Assembly (NCBI GenBank): GCA_026195895.1
Contig: JAPHRO010000030.1
Span: 23,910 to 87,909, forward strand
DNA: 64,000 nt
Reading direction: 5' to 3'
DNA from: Gammaproteobacteria bacterium
GTDB lineage: Bacteria > Pseudomonadota > Gammaproteobacteria > SZUA-229
Part shown: positions 1,816-7,834 of the stretch, in pieces
Layout: each line of letters opens with the position of its first letter
Numbering within the stretch: position 1 is the stretch's first letter
Position numbers and translations under genes: made by a program
The notes under the pieces: model-generated
What the model was told of the DNA's origin: nothing
Databases searched by the model: none
The model's input: only the letters and a program-made list of their open reading frames with translations

Positions 1816-2115
1816 ATGAACTCAATTTTAGCCAAATATAGATTACATAGCTTGCTTGTCATCAGTATGTTGTTGCTGATGATGCAGTTTGTAACGGCTG
1901 CCCATTCTATTGATCATATCTTTCATGAGCATTCGATTGAATGTGATTTATACCTTGCCTCAGAACATAATAGTTCTGGCTTGCTTAGTGATTTTATCGT
2001 TTTGTCTCCGGCTTTCCAGTCTGGTAGCGAAATAGATTTTTATATATATGCTGATATATCAGTCGATAAAATACAACCCTCAAGTCGTGACCCGCCTGCT
2101 CATCACTTTGTGTAA
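1816..2115 (+). CDS. Small secreted hypothetical protein (His-containing)
   Basis: 99 aa; N-terminal hydrophobic signal-like segment (LLVISMLLLMMQFVTAAHS); HxxxH, HEH patterns; sits directly upstream of the His-rich OM protein and the Znu-like genes. Confidence 0.35.
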   Translation: MNSILAKYRLHSLLVISMLLLMMQFVTAAHSIDHIFHEHSIECDLYLASEHNSSGLLSDFIVLSPAFQSGSEIDFYIYADISVDKIQPSSRDPPAHHFV

Positions 2116-2179
2116 TTAAAATTATTTATTTTAGTTAACAAACGTTTTTTTAACGTTTTGCTAGTGATGAAATTTAACA

Positions 2180-3460
2180 ATGAATTCTAGATATGTTTTC
2201 CCATGCCTGTTCGCAGGCATGGCTATGTCAGGTAATGTCTTATCTGAAACTTTTGATCAACAGGGTATTCAGCAACTGGAGCAGAGAGTCGCACAACTGG
2301 AGGCAGGCGCGTTACCCAATGCGGACAATGCCTTTAATCCAGCGATCAGTATTATTCTTGATGGGCGTTATGCAAATTTTGATGATAACTCTGAAGGCTA
2401 TCATTTACCCGGGTTTCAGTTAGGGGGTGAAGCTGGAGTGGGAGAGACAGGTTTTTCGCTCGGTCATACGGAGATAACTGCCAGTTCCAATATTGATAAT
2501 TACTTTTTCGGCAAAATGACTTTAGCCATTGCCGAGCACGAGGGTGAAACCGAAATTGAACTGGAAGAAGCTTTTTTACAGACGCTGGGTTTGGGGTCTG
2601 GTGTAACACTTACCCTTGGGCGTTTTTTTTCTGATTTTGGTTATCTTAATAAACAACATCCCCATGCCTGGGATTTTGCAGATGCGCCATTGGTGTATCG
2701 CGCGATGATGGGGAATCATTTAATTGATGACGGCGTGCAGTTTTTATATCTGGCGGATAGTGACATGTTCCTGCAGTTTGGCGCTGAAGCATTCCGCGGC
2801 AGCCGGTTTCCCGCAGGTGGCGAGCAGGACAATATTGGTGCCTGGACAGCTTTTGTCGAATTTGGTGACGACATTGATGACAGTAATAGCTGGCAGGCAG
2901 GCATCAGTCATTGGCGGGCAGATAATATTCATCGGGAAGGCGGGCATGGCCATGATCATGGCGGTGGCACTGCGGAAACTCCCGTGTTCATTGGTGAAAG
3001 TAACATGAGTGCGCTGGATCTGGTTTATAAATGGGCGCCCAATGGAAACCCGGTGAACAAAAATTTTAAATTACAGTTTGAATATATTCTGCGTGATGAA
3101 CAGGGTGATGTTGAGCTTGAAGGTTCTGATCCATTGGAAAGCACATCGTATGATGGAGAGCAAACAGGTTGGTATTTACAGGGTGTTTACCAGTTTGCCC
3201 GTCAGTGGCGAACCGGTTTACGCTATGACGCATTGAGTTCTGATAATCGGGCATCTGATGAGAGTGTGTTAGAAGCGGCAGGTTTGCACGATGAAGGGCA
3301 TGATCCCAGACGCATTTCTGCGATGCTTGAGTGGGTGCCTACGGAATTTAGTCGAATTCGATTGCAGTTTAATCGTGACGAATCGACCCTTGTTGCTAAT
3401 AACCAATGGTTTGTGCAGTACACGGTGAGCATGGGTTCTCATGGCGCACATCAATTTTAG
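2180..3460 (+). CDS. Putative outer-membrane beta-barrel protein with His-rich loop (porin-like)
   Basis: 426 aa; signal peptide; N-terminal coiled-coil-like QQLEQRVAQLEAG; alternating hydrophobic beta-strand pattern; C-terminal aromatic residue (…HQF) typical of OMP barrels; HREGGHGHDHGGG His cluster. Co-oriented and 6 bp upstream of a TroA/ZnuA-like binding protein. Confidence 0.5.
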   Translation: MNSRYVFPCLFAGMAMSGNVLSETFDQQGIQQLEQRVAQLEAGALPNADNAFNPAISIILDGRYANFDDNSEGYHLPGFQLGGEAGVGETGFSLGHTEITASSNIDNYFFGKMTLAIAEHEGETEIELEEAFLQTLGLGSGVTLTLGRFFSDFGYLNKQHPHAWDFADAPLVYRAMMGNHLIDDGVQFLYLADSDMFLQFGAEAFRGSRFPAGGEQDNIGAWTAFVEFGDDIDDSNSWQAGISHWRADNIHREGGHGHDHGGGTAETPVFIGESNMSALDLVYKWAPNGNPVNKNFKLQFEYILRDEQGDVELEGSDPLESTSYDGEQTGWYLQGVYQFARQWRTGLRYDALSSDNRASDESVLEAAGLHDEGHDPRRISAMLEWVPTEFSRIRLQFNRDESTLVANNQWFVQYTVSMGSHGAHQF

Positions 3461-3466
3461 TAAAGG

Positions 3467-4381
3467 ATGACTGTAATGCATAAAGTAATAAAATTTATAT
3501 TTGTTATGGCCATGTTCGCATACGCGAACATGGTAAACGCCCAGCTTAATGTATTTACATGTGAGCCGGAGTGGGCTTCACTGGCAAAAGAACTGGGCGG
3601 GGAAAAAATAAAAGTTTTTTCTGCCACCACTGGATTGCAGGACCCACATCATATCCAGGCGCGGCCCAGTTTATTAGCCAGGGCCCGACGCGCAGATTTA
3701 CTGGTCTGCACGGGTGCGGAACTGGAAATTGGCTGGTTGCCTATTCTGTTACGAAAAACGGCTAATGCTGAAATACAGCCAGGAAAACCTGGCAATCTGA
3801 TGGTAACAGAATATTTGTCACTCAAAGATAAGCCCGACCGGCTGGATCGTCGTGAAGGTGATATGCATGCGGAAGGCAATCCCCATGTGCAAACCAGTCC
3901 CTACAATATTTCAAAAATTGCACTTATTTTATTAAAACGATTGCAACAAATTGATGCGGGCAATGCGGCTGTGTACCAAAATAATTATGACGATTTTATA
4001 CAACGCTGGCAGCGAGCCATAGCAAGATGGGAAGAAGAGGCATCGGTCTTGCGCGGAAAATCCCTGATTGTATATCACAGGAACTGGGGGTATATGACCG
4101 ACTGGTTAGGTTTAAATGTTGTTGCTGTAATCGAGCCCAGACCCGGGATACCACCCAGTAGTGCCTATTTGTCAAAAATTATAAAACAGATGGAAGTGTC
4201 GCCAGCCAAAATGATTATTCATGCAGCACATCAACCGGCTAAAGCGAGCGACTGGTTATCGAGTAAACTCGCTATTAAAAAAGTTCAATTGCCGTTTACT
4301 GTGGGCGGCAGTAAAACAGCGCATGATTTGTTTTCCCTGTTTGATGAAACTATTCAACTGCTGGTGTCGGGATTGCAATAA
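3467..4381 (+). CDS. Metal (Zn/Mn-type) ABC transporter substrate-binding protein, TroA/ZnuA family
   Basis: 304 aa; signal peptide; DPHHIQARPS and EGNPHVQTSP motifs correspond to the two metal-ligand DPH / NPH motifs of cluster A-I binding proteins. Confidence 0.8.
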   Translation: MTVMHKVIKFIFVMAMFAYANMVNAQLNVFTCEPEWASLAKELGGEKIKVFSATTGLQDPHHIQARPSLLARARRADLLVCTGAELEIGWLPILLRKTANAEIQPGKPGNLMVTEYLSLKDKPDRLDRREGDMHAEGNPHVQTSPYNISKIALILLKRLQQIDAGNAAVYQNNYDDFIQRWQRAIARWEEEASVLRGKSLIVYHRNWGYMTDWLGLNVVAVIEPRPGIPPSSAYLSKIIKQMEVSPAKMIIHAAHQPAKASDWLSSKLAIKKVQLPFTVGGSKTAHDLFSLFDETIQLLVSGLQ

Positions 4382-5151
4382 TGATGGATGGTCTTGAACT
4401 AAGTATCCTGGGACCTGCTTTTATTGCGGGGCTGTTGGTGTTGATTACCCACGTGCCTCTGGGGCAAAAAGTGTTAGCACGAGGTATTATTTTTATTGAT
4501 CTGGCGATAGCTCAAATAGCGGGCTTGGGCGTGATAGCTGCCTATAGTATGGGCTGGGAAGAACAGACGTACATGGTGCAATTATCTGCCGCTTTGTTTG
4601 CTATAGCCGGTGCATTATTTTTAAGCTGGACAGAAAAATTCTGGGATAATTATCAGGAAGCAATTATTGGGGTGGTATTTGTACTCAGTGCCTGCATAAG
4701 CATTTTGTTATTGGTTGATAATCCGCATGGTGGAGAGCATTTAAAAGAACTATTAGTGGGCCAGGTGCTATGGGTTAATGTTCACCAGCTTATTTATGCC
4801 GCCACTGTTACCGGCTGCATTGTTGCATTCTGGTTGTTTTTGAAAAATAAATTATCCGGAATTTGGTTCTATATATTGTTTTCCATTGCAGTAACCACTT
4901 CGGTGCAACTGGTTGGCGTATATCTGGTGTTTTCCAGTCTTATAATGCCTGCTTTGTTTGTTTCAATAGCTGGCAGGGAAAAGAAACTGACCGATGCCTA
5001 TGTCATTGGCATAGTCGGCTATGCCCTGGGTTTATTGTTGTCGGCCTGGCTGGATTTACCTAGTGGACCCATGATTGTTGTGCTACTGGCTTTTTCCGGA
5101 GTCTTGTATGTTGCGGTAAACCGATATGTCTCTGGCCTCAAGCAGGTCTGA
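4381..5151 (+). CDS. Metal ABC transporter permease (ZnuB-like)
   Basis: 256 aa; 7-8 predicted TM segments; size and hydrophobicity profile of ZnuB/MntB-type permeases; start codon overlaps the binding-protein stop (ATGATGG). Confidence 0.75.
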   Translation: MMDGLELSILGPAFIAGLLVLITHVPLGQKVLARGIIFIDLAIAQIAGLGVIAAYSMGWEEQTYMVQLSAALFAIAGALFLSWTEKFWDNYQEAIIGVVFVLSACISILLLVDNPHGGEHLKELLVGQVLWVNVHQLIYAATVTGCIVAFWLFLKNKLSGIWFYILFSIAVTTSVQLVGVYLVFSSLIMPALFVSIAGREKKLTDAYVIGIVGYALGLLLSAWLDLPSGPMIVVLLAFSGVLYVAVNRYVSGLKQV

Positions 5152-5212
5152 CTGATGTTCCAGTGCATAAGCTATACTTGTGTATGCTACTGGATGATAA
5201 AGGTCTATTGAT

Positions 5213-5623
5213 ATGCAAAAATGTCGTGAGTGCCAGCACCGAGTGAGTGAACAGGCTTTTAGCTGCCCACAATGTGGTGCGCCTTATCCAGCCAAAGAAA
5301 AATGGGATGGCTGGGGATTTGAATATAAATCAGCAGCAGCATTCCTGGGTTGGCCTTTGCTACATATATCGTTTAAATTTCGTCCGAATAAGATGCCGGT
5401 GCCAGCAAAGGGTATTATTTCCATTGGCCAGTTTGGCATGGGTGTCATAAATATTTCGCAATTTGGTATAGGCGTGTTTAGTTTAAGCCAGTTTACGATT
5501 GCCGGATTTGCCGTCGCCCAGTTTGGAGTTGCTTATTCGCTGGTGGCGCAATTTGGAATATATGTTGAGCAGGGTTATGGACAGATGGTTGTGCAACTTG
5601 GCGAGCTTTTTTCCGGGGTATAA
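5213..5623 (+). CDS. Zinc-ribbon protein with five tandem QFGxGV hydrophobic repeats
   Basis: 136 aa; N-terminal C-x2-C-x13-C-x2-C (CRECQ…CPQCG); C-terminal half ISIGQFGMGV / INISQFGIGV / FSLSQFTIAG / FAVAQFGVAY / SLVAQFGIYV. Confidence 0.5.
   Translation: MQKCRECQHRVSEQAFSCPQCGAPYPAKEKWDGWGFEYKSAAAFLGWPLLHISFKFRPNKMPVPAKGIISIGQFGMGVINISQFGIGVFSLSQFTIAGFAVAQFGVAYSLVAQFGIYVEQGYGQMVVQLGELFSGV
5414..5590 (+). repeat. Five tandem 33-nt coding repeats (cagtttggNNtNggNgtN…)
   Basis: DNA units cagtttggcatgggtgtc / caatttggtataggcgtg / cagtttacgattgccgga / cagtttggagttgcttat / caatttggaatatatgtt, spaced 33 nt apart inside the 5213..5623 CDS. Confidence 0.5.
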
Positions 5624-5636
5624 AAACTAATATGTT

Positions 5637-6125
5637 TTAATTTGACTGTTGCCTGGTCAGGCTAATAACAACGGTGAAATAGGCAGCTATCACCCCCAGT
5701 ATCAAAGCTGAAACATCCAGCATATCAAAATGGCCATAGATAAAATAATTGGCGATAGCGTGATTAAACCAGTCGGGTAGTATGTCAATAATAGAGTCCG
5801 TCATTGATGGTTGCTGACCAATTTCAAATAGCAACTCTACCACCAGCCAGAAAATACAAATCAGACGCAGAGTTATAATATTTGCAGAAATAACCGCAGT
5901 GCTTAAAAGAATAAAAGCATAAATATGCAGAAAAGAGGGTATTGAGTAAATGATGCTGTTCGAAAAGACCTGCGGCATGAGATTTGTTTCCGGCAGGTAA
6001 TTGAGGAAAAGTGGTTGTTGGTGTAATCGAGTTGTGAGATATAACAACACACCTGTTAATAGCGCCGAAAGTGCTGCTACTAACAGGAGTGTCCTGTTCT
6101 TATTTGTCCATTTATATTGAATCAT
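5637..6125 (-). CDS. Small integral membrane protein, unknown function
   Basis: About 160 aa from MIQYKW…; four hydrophobic helices. The ORF-track start at 6188 overlaps the upstream gene, so the internal Met at 6125 is preferred. Immediately downstream of the PKD-repeat protein on the same strand. Confidence 0.45.
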   Translation of the reverse strand: MIQYKWTNKNRTLLLVAALSALLTGVLLYLTTRLHQQPLFLNYLPETNLMPQVFSNSIIYSIPSFLHIYAFILLSTAVISANIITLRLICIFWLVVELLFEIGQQPSMTDSIIDILPDWFNHAIANYFIYGHFDMLDVSALILGVIAAYFTVVISLTRQQSN

Positions 6126-6151
6126 TTTTCTGGCTGATGATTTGATTTCTA

Positions 6152-7834
6152 TTAAGGGCAATCTCCTGGGTTTGCGCCGCAACGGCAACCGCTAAGGGTT
6201 TCAATTTGAACTTCGGCCATAACGGTACCCGTAAAGGCGGCATCAATTCGGTAATACATGTTATCCGCAATATTACGCACCACGAAGGATGGTGAGTTAA
6301 TATCGCTAATCGGATTTGCATGGCTTCGACTAAATTCTTCCCAAACCGCAGGAAGAAGTATCGTGAATTCGGCCTGATCCGGGAAATTGGTGCCATCAGG
6401 AATTATGGCCTGATAAACCACCGAATCGGGAATGGGGCCACCTCCTGCTGTCGCGCTTATTTCATCACTGCCGGCTGCATCAATCTGAATATAAGTTGCC
6501 ACTTCACCCATGTCTGGTGCAAATGGCAAAGCGGTTACCAGCGACAGTGGCGTTGAGCAGGCGCCTGGTAAGCTGGTGGTGGATATACGAACAATATCCG
6601 GATAGCTATCATCAGTGCCATCATTGACCACTAGCCGAACCAGATAATTGCCATCACGATCCGGCGTGAGCTGAGTAGTTTGTGTGTCTAATGATGACAG
6701 GGCAGCCGTGCTTCCCGTCGGTTGTTTAATCAACGTCCAGACATAAGTGAGGGTTTGCATTTCGGGATCGCTGCTGCCATTGCCGTTTAAGTTGACAGTG
6801 ACCCCGGTGTTGACACTTTGATCGACGCCGCCATCGGCAATGGGTAGCTGATTATTGCTGGCGATGACGACCACGCGATCTTCGTAGATATCGTCCAGCG
6901 ATCGACTGCTGTCACGAAAGCCGTCGTTGACGCGCAGTCGAATCAGATAAGCGCCTGCGACATCGGCAATGAAAGAAGGCTGCATGCCTGTTTTATCGGT
7001 TAGCTGTGTGGAACTGCCCGTGGGTCGATAAAGCATGCGCCAGTTATAGGACAGGGGGTTGCCATAGGCGCTGTAACTGTTTTGGCCATTGAGTTGCACC
7101 TGGCTACCGATATTAACGAACTGGTCGGTGCCGGCTACGGCAACCGGTAGTGAAAAGTCGCTATTTTTTGATCGGATAATCACAGTATTGCTCGCACTAT
7201 CGACGGCACCATCATTGACGACCAGGTCGAGCATGTAATCAGTATCGCTATCAGCAACAAATGTGGTTGTGGCTGATGTTGTGCTGGAAAGTGTGGCTGA
7301 AGCAGAGCCTGGCTGGAAACTCCAGTTATACGACAGTGAGTTATCGTCGGCATCGGTCGCAGTGCCATTGAGTTGCACGGTGTCACCGACGCTCACTTCC
7401 TGGTAGGCGCCCGCTTCGGCAACCGGTCTGGCATTGCCGGTATAGGCGGTGATTCTGGTGGTGATCGATTCCTGGTTGGCGCCCGTTGAAGTTTTCAGGG
7501 TAGCAACATATTCGCCGTCTACATCCGCTATAAAACTGCTCATCATGGTGAAATCAGTCAGGACACTGCTGCTATCTGCAGGTTTGGAGGTTAATTGCCA
7601 GATAAAATCCAGATAGGCGGTATCGGGTGCGGCTTCGGTGAAATCGCTACAGCGTCCATCCAGAATGACTCGCGAGCCGGTGCGCACGTGCTGGCTTTTT
7701 CCGATGCACGATAGGGTGGTTTGTGTATAGCTATTGCTACCGGTGCCAATAATACTAAGCAGTCCAACGGCAACTACAACACCCAGTGCAGAAAATTGAA
7801 TTAAAAATTTGTAGATACTGGATCGATTTTTCAT
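6152..7834 (-). CDS. Secreted protein with four PKD/Ig-like repeat domains
   Basis: 560 aa; signal peptide (FSALGVVVAVGLLSIIGTGS); repeated ~90-aa modules each ending L(V/R)VNDG..D(S): LDLVVNDGAVDSAS, LRVNDGFRDSS, LVVNDGTDDS, plus a first degenerate copy; C-terminal Cys-rich tail CRCGANPGDCP. Confidence 0.65.
   Translation of the reverse strand: MKNRSSIYKFLIQFSALGVVVAVGLLSIIGTGSNSYTQTTLSCIGKSQHVRTGSRVILDGRCSDFTEAAPDTAYLDFIWQLTSKPADSSSVLTDFTMMSSFIADVDGEYVATLKTSTGANQESITTRITAYTGNARPVAEAGAYQEVSVGDTVQLNGTATDADDNSLSYNWSFQPGSASATLSSTTSATTTFVADSDTDYMLDLVVNDGAVDSASNTVIIRSKNSDFSLPVAVAGTDQFVNIGSQVQLNGQNSYSAYGNPLSYNWRMLYRPTGSSTQLTDKTGMQPSFIADVAGAYLIRLRVNDGFRDSSRSLDDIYEDRVVVIASNNQLPIADGGVDQSVNTGVTVNLNGNGSSDPEMQTLTYVWTLIKQPTGSTAALSSLDTQTTQLTPDRDGNYLVRLVVNDGTDDSYPDIVRISTTSLPGACSTPLSLVTALPFAPDMGEVATYIQIDAAGSDEISATAGGGPIPDSVVYQAIIPDGTNFPDQAEFTILLPAVWEEFSRSHANPISDINSPSFVVRNIADNMYYRIDAAFTGTVMAEVQIETLSGCRCGANPGDCP

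Follow-up and report, generated by a model that had tools for sequence, protein, structure and literature searches.

An open reading frame in the 64,000-nucleotide window (the whole stretch of DNA analyzed here) encodes a 136-residue protein in which a Cys4 zinc ribbon precedes six decapeptide repeats, each anchored by an invariant glutamine. The gene is genuine and evolves under purifying selection, and its repeats are old rather than recent. We call this family ZnR-QF. In the reading that we prefer, at a probability of roughly 0.4, the protein would be a membrane-embedded, self-associating rod with a cytoplasmic zinc ribbon, which senses or anchors either alone or when fused to signaling domains. 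What is new here is a Q-F repeat of 10 or 11 residues with a fully hydrophobic surface and a likely membrane location, in a large, conserved and unannotated family. The β-solenoid fold class and the zinc ribbon are already known.

The reading frame and its decapeptide array

5200..5203, + strand: Shine-Dalgarno-like AAGG, 9 nt 5' of the ATG, as read from the sequence
5213..5623, + strand: ZnR-QF ORF with ATG start, 136 aa and TAA stop, from an unannotated 'zinc ribbon domain-containing protein' family
5213..5290, + strand: Cys4 zinc ribbon, residues 1-26, with C4, C7, C18 and C21 arranged as C-x2-C-x10-C-x2-C
5291..5410, + strand: aromatic/basic 'collar', residues 27-66 (KWDGWGFEYKS ... PLLHISFK(Y/F)RPN ... 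PVPAK), from the column profile of 76 orthologues
5411..5584, + strand: six Q-anchored decapeptide units, residues 67-124, from self-identity and the column profile, with AF2 β structure over 65-122
5585..5620, + strand: putative C-terminal amphipathic helix, residues 125-136 (MVVQLGELFSGV), with an AF2 helix at 129-135

The sequence-only reading of this locus had described an ORF in which a spacer separates an N-terminal zinc ribbon from hydrophobic repeats, and this architecture, including the two CxxC knuckles, is real. It had placed 13 residues between the knuckles, but the cysteine positions leave 10. All four cysteines are invariant in alignments of 32 close and 35 diverse sequences. Two zinc-ribbon HMMs match residues 1-28 of the window protein below their cut-offs (15.1 bits for a cut-off of 25 and 17.5 bits for a cut-off of 27.3), and the relatives P0214 (32.0 bits for Zn_Ribbon_1, cut-off 25, and 31.5 bits) and P0188 (41.5 bits) score above them. 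In the AF2 model, the ribbon forms short β-hairpin knuckles. The collar holds most of the invariant polar residues of the protein (D32, E37, K39, H51, K55, R57 and N59), and its residues 52-66 include four K/R and no D/E. Short strands predicted within it (37-62) cap the modeled solenoid. At the other end, L129, L132 and an acidic residue at position 131 are conserved in the 76-orthologue profile. A Shine-Dalgarno-like motif is found within -20..-4 of the start in 50 of 75 orthologues, no conserved upstream motif appears among 16 gammaproteobacterial orthologues, and the 64-kb window contains no second copy of the gene.

The anchor glutamines of the array are Q73, Q83, Q93, Q103, Q113 and Q124. 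The first five have codons at 5429, 5459, 5489, 5519 and 5549, each 10 residues from the next, and the sixth (5582) follows after the only 11-residue step. Units conform to the consensus [small]-Q-F-[G/A/T]-phi-[G/A]-phi-phi-[S/T/N/A]-phi, such that small residues recur at Q-1, +2, +4 and +7, aliphatic or aromatic residues occupy +1, +3, +5, +6 and +8, and the glutamine itself never varies. The five decapeptides listed earlier (ISIGQFGMGV / INISQFGIGV / FSLSQFTIAG / FAVAQFGVAY / SLVAQFGIYV) are correct and correspond to residues 69-118, though the array extends to a sixth Q-anchored unit. Their period had been given as 11 residues or 33 nt, whereas it is 10 residues or 30 nt. Protein self-identity is 0.38 at lag 10 and at background (0.06) at lag 11, and DNA self-identity is 0.47 at lag 30 and again at background (0.20) at lag 33. 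Within residues 67-124, the lag-10 identity of 0.44 was matched at any lag from 3 to 20 by none of 20000 composition-preserving shuffles. Residues 67-118 contain no charged residue (GRAVY 1.3) and are flanked by four K/R on the N-terminal side and two D/E on the C-terminal side.

Predicted fold and membrane topology

In the membrane-embedded rod that we propose, the zinc ribbon would stay in the cytoplasm, the collar (WDGWGFEYKS ... HISFKYRPN) would lie at the membrane interface, and the lipid bilayer would enclose the uncharged six-decapeptide array. Most likely, the array forms a parallel β-solenoid that is very narrow, with rungs of about 10 residues each. Its core would be filled by Gly, Ser, Ala and Thr at Q-1, +2, +4 and +7, and its exterior would be aliphatic and aromatic apart from one ladder of invariant glutamines. 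Such a rod would probably cross the membrane once with an N-in/C-out orientation, and the basic residues before and acidic residues after positions 67-118 fit this orientation under the positive-inside rule. The glutamine ladder would probably drive lateral self-association. The stand-alone protein may then signal or recruit partners through its zinc ribbon, and in distant relatives the same module is wired to a Ser/Thr kinase or a HAAS signaling domain. We infer the membrane embedding, topology, oligomerization and sensor or adaptor role of the protein. The earlier suggestion that the repeats have an amyloid-like or membrane-interacting flavor is compatible with both the modeled β-solenoid and the charge-free segment.

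The AF2 predictions differ between a shallow alignment of close homologues and a more diverse one. With 32 close homologues, the model (pLDDT 66) has β structure at 65-91 and a helix at 93-119. With 35 sequences that include distant relatives, the top model reaches a pLDDT of 93.1 and a pTM of 0.70, and it consists of unbroken β structure over 65-122, the capping strands at 37-62, and the helix at 129-135. The five models range in pLDDT from 64.6 to 93.1. AF2 is known to over-predict solenoids for repeat sequences, and this warning still applies here, though the repeats are imperfect and conserved. A Foldseek search against the PDB finds no significant analogue (E > 0.2, TM <= 0.21). The model suggests approximately one decapeptide per rung, an estimate that comes from the fit to a 12-residue-per-rung solenoid and the unbroken DSSP 'E' assignment and not from coordinates.

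Sequence covariation provides a second view of the fold. The column profile reads as two in-out-in triplets per 10 residues, which fits a solenoid. G75/N80 co-vary with A75/T80 at a separation of i, i+5, with 128 and 43 concordant sequences versus 11 discordant ones. In a phylogeny-aware test that compares each sequence only with its closest relative, the co-change of positions 75 and 80 is highly significant (Fisher p = 1e-8 for nearest-neighbor sequence pairs; p = 1.8e-5 in the all-pairs scan of 449 tests). F114-Y122 (i+8) and F89-L91 (i+2) are the other coupled pairs that survive correction, and spacings of i+3 or i+4 are absent among these three strongest pairs. An enrichment of i, i+10 pairs by MI-APC (7 of 21, p = 7e-4) was discounted because the nearest-neighbor co-change test failed to reproduce it. 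Overall, the sequence tests only modestly favor a β-arch geometry over a continuous helix.

Distant relatives of the protein, here called the long form, widen the family into a superfamily. They retain the order of elements (Cys4 ribbon, [WF]GFE[WY]KS, PL[LV]H[IV]A, A[KR]G and then repeats), and their arrays have 6-7 or more loop-free units that alternate between 10 and 11 residues in a 21-residue super-period. A C-terminal tail of the form W-[ST]-x4-D-P-x-A-V-x2-F follows. Long forms are about 170-180 residues in length and number at least 5152, one of them in the cultured bacterium Desulfobacca acetoxidans.

In Planctomycetes, six proteins whose full-length sequences are 56-89% identical among themselves join this module to a kinase. 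After the zinc ribbon and the repeats come a single canonical hydrophobic helix with K/R behind it, a Pro/Ala linker, and a Ser/Thr kinase domain (Pkinase, 1.4e-53). Since both the kinase and the Cys4 ribbon are expected to be cytoplasmic, the repeat domain must cross the membrane an odd number of times. One relative (P0279) has an additional N-terminal transmembrane helix followed by RFRRR, an arrangement that agrees with this topology. Fusions in the order HAAS (PF22564), zinc ribbon and repeats score 27.0 bits (P0144), 27.2 bits (P0216) and 18.7 bits (P0171) for a HAAS cut-off of 27. HAAS domains are described as preceding sensor domains of the multi-TM, Toastrack or pentapeptide-repeat kind, with a PadR regulator usually encoded alongside (PMC11237479). 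No PadR, PspC or Lia genes lie beside the two HAAS-fused relatives examined, and the absence of PadR at these loci makes HAAS a weak lead. The kinase and HAAS fusions suggest a membrane-signal input module that has gone unrecognized.

An alternative that we regard as somewhat doubtful would keep the β-solenoid and remove it from the bilayer. The array would form a cytoplasmic platform beneath the membrane that does not span it, self-assembles in the manner of bactofilins, Toastrack domains or functional amyloids, and docks partners, with the ribbon as an interaction domain. Apart from the glutamine ladder, the repeat has no charged or reliably polar face, which would leave a soluble monomer or filament with an unbroken greasy exterior. 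The fusions raise a further difficulty, in that a kinase preceded by a single canonical TM helix would end up extracellular unless the repeats themselves cross. Pfam also returns no bactofilin, Toastrack or pentapeptide match.

A second alternative, which we judge unlikely, interprets the solenoid as a repeat artifact of AF2 and the array as an α-helical membrane hairpin (TM1 at ~67-89 and TM2 at ~96-118) with an N-in/C-in topology. It would place a polar turn, S90-L-S-Q-F-T95, in the periplasm and tether the zinc ribbon to the inner membrane. The uncharged 52-residue segment with basic residues ahead of it, the invariant or nearly invariant S90, S92, Q93 and T95 at mid-segment, the helix at 93-119 in the shallow-alignment prediction, and the solenoid bias of AF2 all agree with a hairpin. 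However, a TM helix is conventionally a stretch of 19-23 residues with a favorable insertion energy or a KD mean of at least about 1.6, and the array does not contain a classical segment of this kind as judged from its position-independent Hessa-type sums of +3.4 to +8.4 kcal/mol per 19-residue window (a simple calculation) and its KD means of 1.0-1.64. The positive sums oppose helix insertion driven by the translocon. The strict 5/10 periodicity of small residues falls off any single helical face, GxxxG does not occur, and the most strongly coupled pairs have spacings of i+2, i+5 and i+8 in place of i+3 or i+4. Long forms add repeats without polar loops, and only an odd number of crossings would suit the kinase fusions.

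The most novel version of the membrane-embedded rod would be a true transmembrane, ribosomally synthesized parallel β-solenoid in the inner membrane, with a Gly/Ser/Ala core, aliphatic and aromatic residues facing the lipid, and a glutamine ladder that zips protomers together and possibly lines a polar conduit. We consider this version improbable. Ribosomally made transmembrane β-solenoids are not known, a literature search found none, and no pathway is known that would insert one. These points weigh against the preferred membrane rod as well, as do the variability of the AF2 models, the missing Foldseek analogue and the borderline HAAS scores, and no conserved neighbor supports any particular function. 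If the AF2 model is true, then this would be the first natural protein with a membrane-embedded β-solenoid, rather than helices or a barrel. It would bear on membrane-protein folding, on transmembrane prediction (standard hydropathy misses the array) and on protein design. If the solenoid is also transmembrane, it would represent a new class of integral-membrane fold that Ser/Thr kinases and HAAS signaling proteins have taken up as an input module. Should the model prove wrong, the family still provides a clean natural test of AF2 solenoid bias on imperfect repeats.

Comparison with described families

The sequence-only reading recognized no described family that combines a zinc ribbon with such an array, and our searches agree. 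Pfam, NCBIfam, PADLOC, PHROGs and a PDB sequence search return no match to the repeat domain, and a literature search with its motif strings finds nothing relevant. PADLOC and PHROGs match only the zinc ribbon, and the PDB search yields only noise from eL37-type and other zinc ribbons. Ten distant relatives compared with Pfam and NCBIfam likewise give ribbon matches, some above cut-off, and none on the repeats. A few long-form relatives have PF26040.1 among their precomputed domains.

We define a 'ZnR-QF decapeptide repeat' family by a Cys4 ribbon, W/F-G-[FY]-E-[YW]-[KR]-S, P-L-[LV]-H-[IV] and [AV]-[KR]-G, and then at least five [small]-Q-F units at a spacing of 10 or 11 residues. The window protein carries every one of these elements, and they are invariant or nearly so. 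So defined, the family has 3224 short-form and at least 5152 long-form sequences. Thousands of genomes and metagenomes carry the gene at about 70% identity, and about 80% of the protein has no family, structure or literature. At a minimum, the family merits a Pfam/InterPro entry.

Several known systems resemble parts of the protein. The generic bacterial zinc-ribbon families Zn_Ribbon_1 (PF13240), Zn_ribbon_3 (PF13248) and DZR (PF12773), which begin small membrane-associated proteins, share its two N-terminal CxxC knuckles and a hydrophobic region, but their models cover only residues 1-26 and leave the collar and repeats (~110 of 136 residues) uncovered. Pentapeptide-repeat proteins (A(D/N)LXX) fold as a quadrilateral β-helix (PDB 6fls) with an acidic, DNA-mimicking exterior, whereas the ZnR-QF exterior is uncharged and hydrophobic with a glutamine every 10 residues, and its period is 10 or 11. 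Pentapeptide HMMs do not match the protein even at E <= 10. Toastrack domains (DUF4097/DUF2154/DUF2807; LiaF/LiaG/PspC-type envelope-stress proteins, PMC11237479) are larger and have polar surfaces, unlike the ZnR-QF repeat domain. Pfam gives no Toastrack match, and PadR, PspC and Lia neighbors are absent from the two HAAS-fused loci examined. It also falls outside the bactofilins (DUF583, PF04519), which are polar-surfaced triangular β-helices.

The resemblance to secreted repeat proteins is equally limited. The antifreeze protein of Tenebrio molitor (1ezg), with 12 residues per rung, and the YadA-like heads of trimeric autotransporters, with 14, have no sequence relationship to the array (3-12% identity). 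These narrow solenoids are secreted and polar-surfaced, whereas the ZnR-QF protein lacks a signal peptide, a disulfide core and an autotransporter anchor. The signal peptide, Hep_Hag repeats and YadA anchor barrel that together define YadA-like heads do not describe it. The curli subunit CsgA, a functional amyloid, has hydrophilic repeats of ~19-23 residues (S-X5-Q-X-G-X-G-N-X-A-X3-Q), is secreted by Sec, and is encoded in csg operons. In place of a signal peptide, the ZnR-QF protein has a cytoplasmic-type zinc ribbon, its units are 10 residues long, and no csg genes are nearby, so it is not a CsgA-type protein, for which the marks are a Sec signal peptide, Q/N repeats of 19-23 residues and a setting in a csg operon.

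Genomic context, repeat age and distribution

5' of the ORF, in order: tag (PF03352), a CPXCG protein, a 99-aa ORF, and a 426-aa protein without a Pfam match
Then: a ZnuA-like gene (PF01297, 1.8e-37), an ABC-3 permease gene (PF00950, 9.6e-23), and the ZnR-QF gene
3' of the ZnR-QF gene, opposite strand: a 183-aa membrane protein, a PKD protein, thiE and thiD

The position of the ZnR-QF gene 61 nt downstream of the ZnuA-like and ABC-3 genes on the same strand, together with the Cys4 zinc site of its product, could point to zinc homeostasis, in which the protein would be an accessory, chaperone or sensor for the adjacent uptake genes. We find this very improbable. In a syntenic MAG (L015), the tag gene directly precedes the ZnR-QF gene and the downstream genes are the same as in the window, which identifies the block at 1816-5151 as a lineage-specific insert. 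At another locus (L005), genes for DUF2339 and DUF3999 occupy the interval of the Znu genes, and at no other locus examined do Znu genes adjoin the ZnR-QF gene. On the strength of the synteny with these two loci, the link to zinc uptake was rejected.

Clustering of neighbors across 64 non-redundant loci, the window included, detects no recurrent neighbor family. The largest 'cluster' mixes PAS, response-regulator and histidine-kinase proteins that are unrelated to one another. Recurrence of Sod_Fe is confined to two lineages, and GNAT acetyltransferases likewise occur in two. Six loci that were inspected singly have wholly different contexts, and three long-form loci are likewise unrelated. 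In 43 of 59 loci, the upstream neighbor shares the strand of the ZnR-QF gene, and the gap between them is often <100 nt. This arrangement suggests that the ZnR-QF gene is probably often co-transcribed with whichever gene lies upstream.

The age of the repeats is evident from their constancy. Repeat count and spacing are identical in ~125 full-length subfamily members, with no variation in repeat number among them, and independent assemblies give equal lengths. Residues specific to individual repeats (S90, T95, Y108 and S109) are fixed or almost so in 76 multi-phylum orthologues. The units have diverged to 33-60% nucleotide identity and 30-70% amino acid identity. At the DNA level, where the repeats had been called visible, they barely are: Tandem Repeats Finder returns no tandem array even at a score of 30, and a repeat search finds only matches of 14-19 nt at a spacing of 90. 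The fixed repeat number, old divergence and constraint rule out recent tandem duplication, copy-number variation among strains and collapse of the assembly. The protein also contains no GxxxG anywhere, only two small-xxx-small pairs occur in residues 67-124, and the pattern of small residues is of a β type rather than one for helix packing, so there is no GxxxG(xxxG) on one helical face as in a glycine zipper. Thus, the repeat proposed by the sequence-only reading is real and highly significant, but as a recently expanded and perhaps strain-variable array that forms a glycine zipper it has next to no probability.

A search of 5.8 billion proteins finds the 3224 short-form homologues at E <= 1e-3, and their names go no further than 'zinc ribbon domain-containing protein' or 'hypothetical'. 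Identity to the window protein is 68-79% among the best 120, almost all of which are 134-137 residues long. A profile search of 1.84 billion cluster representatives gives 1346 clusters at E <= 1e-3 and 309 at E <= 1e-10. Among contigs from one genome per GTDB species, the gene is present in 333 species genomes and at least 10 phyla, and the best 80 matches are 66-79% identical. Gammaproteobacterial carriers are Thiorhodococcus, Thiocystis, Thiodiazotropha and Sedimenticolaceae, and Desulfosarcina, Desulfocicer, Geobacter and Syntrophales are listed under Desulfobacterota. The gene also occurs in Binatia, Chloroflexota, Planctomycetota, Nitrospirota, Alpha- and Betaproteobacteria, KSB1, Calditrichota, Kiritimatiellota (Pontiella), Bacteroidota and one Clostridia MAG.

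Among the best 80 of the 333 species, the nearest relative of the gammaproteobacterial copy is from a 'delta proteobacterium' MAG (79%), which implies that either constraint has flattened the phylogeny or horizontal transfer has mixed it. Searches of plasmids and phages with tblastn find no copies, and thus give no evidence of a mobile-element vehicle. Codon analysis of the 76 orthologues gives dN/dS values of 0.06-0.3 in close pairs with unsaturated dS, and the median pS over all orthologue pairs is 0.82 versus a median pN of 0.20. Cultured bacteria with the short form include Thiocystis violacea DSM 208, Thiorhodococcus minor DSM 11518, Desulfocicer vacuolatum DSM 3385 and Pontiella sulfatireligans F21. 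Most carriers are sediment-type anaerobes and sulfur-cycling bacteria.

Genes flanking the target gene

The interval upstream of the target gene contains a block of four genes, one of which encodes a 426-aa protein with a His-rich stretch (HGHDHGGG). This protein has no match in Pfam and looks like an outer-membrane protein.

Window 1816-5151: block of a 99-aa ORF, the 426-aa protein, a ZnuA-like binding protein and an ABC-3 permease
Window 5637-6188 (-): 183-aa membrane-protein ORF, TTG start as listed
Window 6152-7834 (-): PKD-domain gene, upstream of the 183-aa ORF

The block is missing from the interval between tag and the target-gene orthologue in the syntenic MAG locus L015, and so appears to be a metal-uptake cassette that was inserted. 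It has no adjoining gene for a ZnuC-like ABC ATPase. On the opposite strand downstream of the target gene, the 183-aa ORF shares 37 nt with the end of the PKD-domain gene when it is read from its listed TTG codon; the start actually used probably lies further downstream. The membrane protein that it encodes also has no Pfam match, and its gene is kept beside the target gene in L015 only.

Domain fusions in relatives

The zinc ribbon and Gln-Phe (QF) repeats are joined to other domains in several homologues. In six Planctomycetes metagenome proteins (P0183, P0277 and P0279-P0282) they are followed by a single TM helix and then a Ser/Thr kinase. This order is the reverse of the usual PknB-type arrangement and places the sensor-like module N-terminal to the kinase. 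Two further loci encode proteins in which a HAAS domain precedes the zinc ribbon and QF repeats.

L091 3195-3929: HAAS-zinc ribbon-QF-repeat protein
L092 4001-4747: HAAS-zinc ribbon-QF-repeat protein

Although HAAS domains are reported to be invariably coupled to a PadR-type regulator, usually encoded by a neighbouring gene (PMC11237479), none is found near either of these genes. A GNAT acetyltransferase is encoded immediately upstream of the fused gene in L092, and likewise of the short-form gene in L001 and L012. Two other metagenome proteins, P0131 (325 aa) and P0264 (199 aa), join the module to a C-terminal beta-lactamase-like fragment or an N-terminal HATPase_c fragment. Each fusion has one example, and both look like products of a frameshift or of chimeric gene calling, not real domain combinations. 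The precomputed domain lists of five long-form relatives (P0410, P0427, P0444, P0461 and P0473) include PF26040.1, which might already cover part of the target family.

Superoxide dismutase neighbours and a gene present in two copies

Fe/Mn superoxide dismutase genes lie no more than two genes from a family member in one Desulfosarcina genome and in Binatia genomes; the Binatia loci also encode a 315-aa double-zinc-ribbon protein.

L003 6306-7031: Fe/Mn superoxide dismutase gene
L008 7420-8136: Fe/Mn superoxide dismutase gene
L009 5196-5912: Fe/Mn superoxide dismutase gene

This proximity is probably due to chance, since the pattern occurs in only two of the 64 non-redundant loci. The MAG MFD00709.bin.1.229 carries the 136-aa gene twice, on separate contigs (L016 and L018). 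These copies are nearly alike (pS 0.05, pN 0.012): the gene could have been duplicated recently, the bin could contain a mixture of strains, or the assembly could be redundant.
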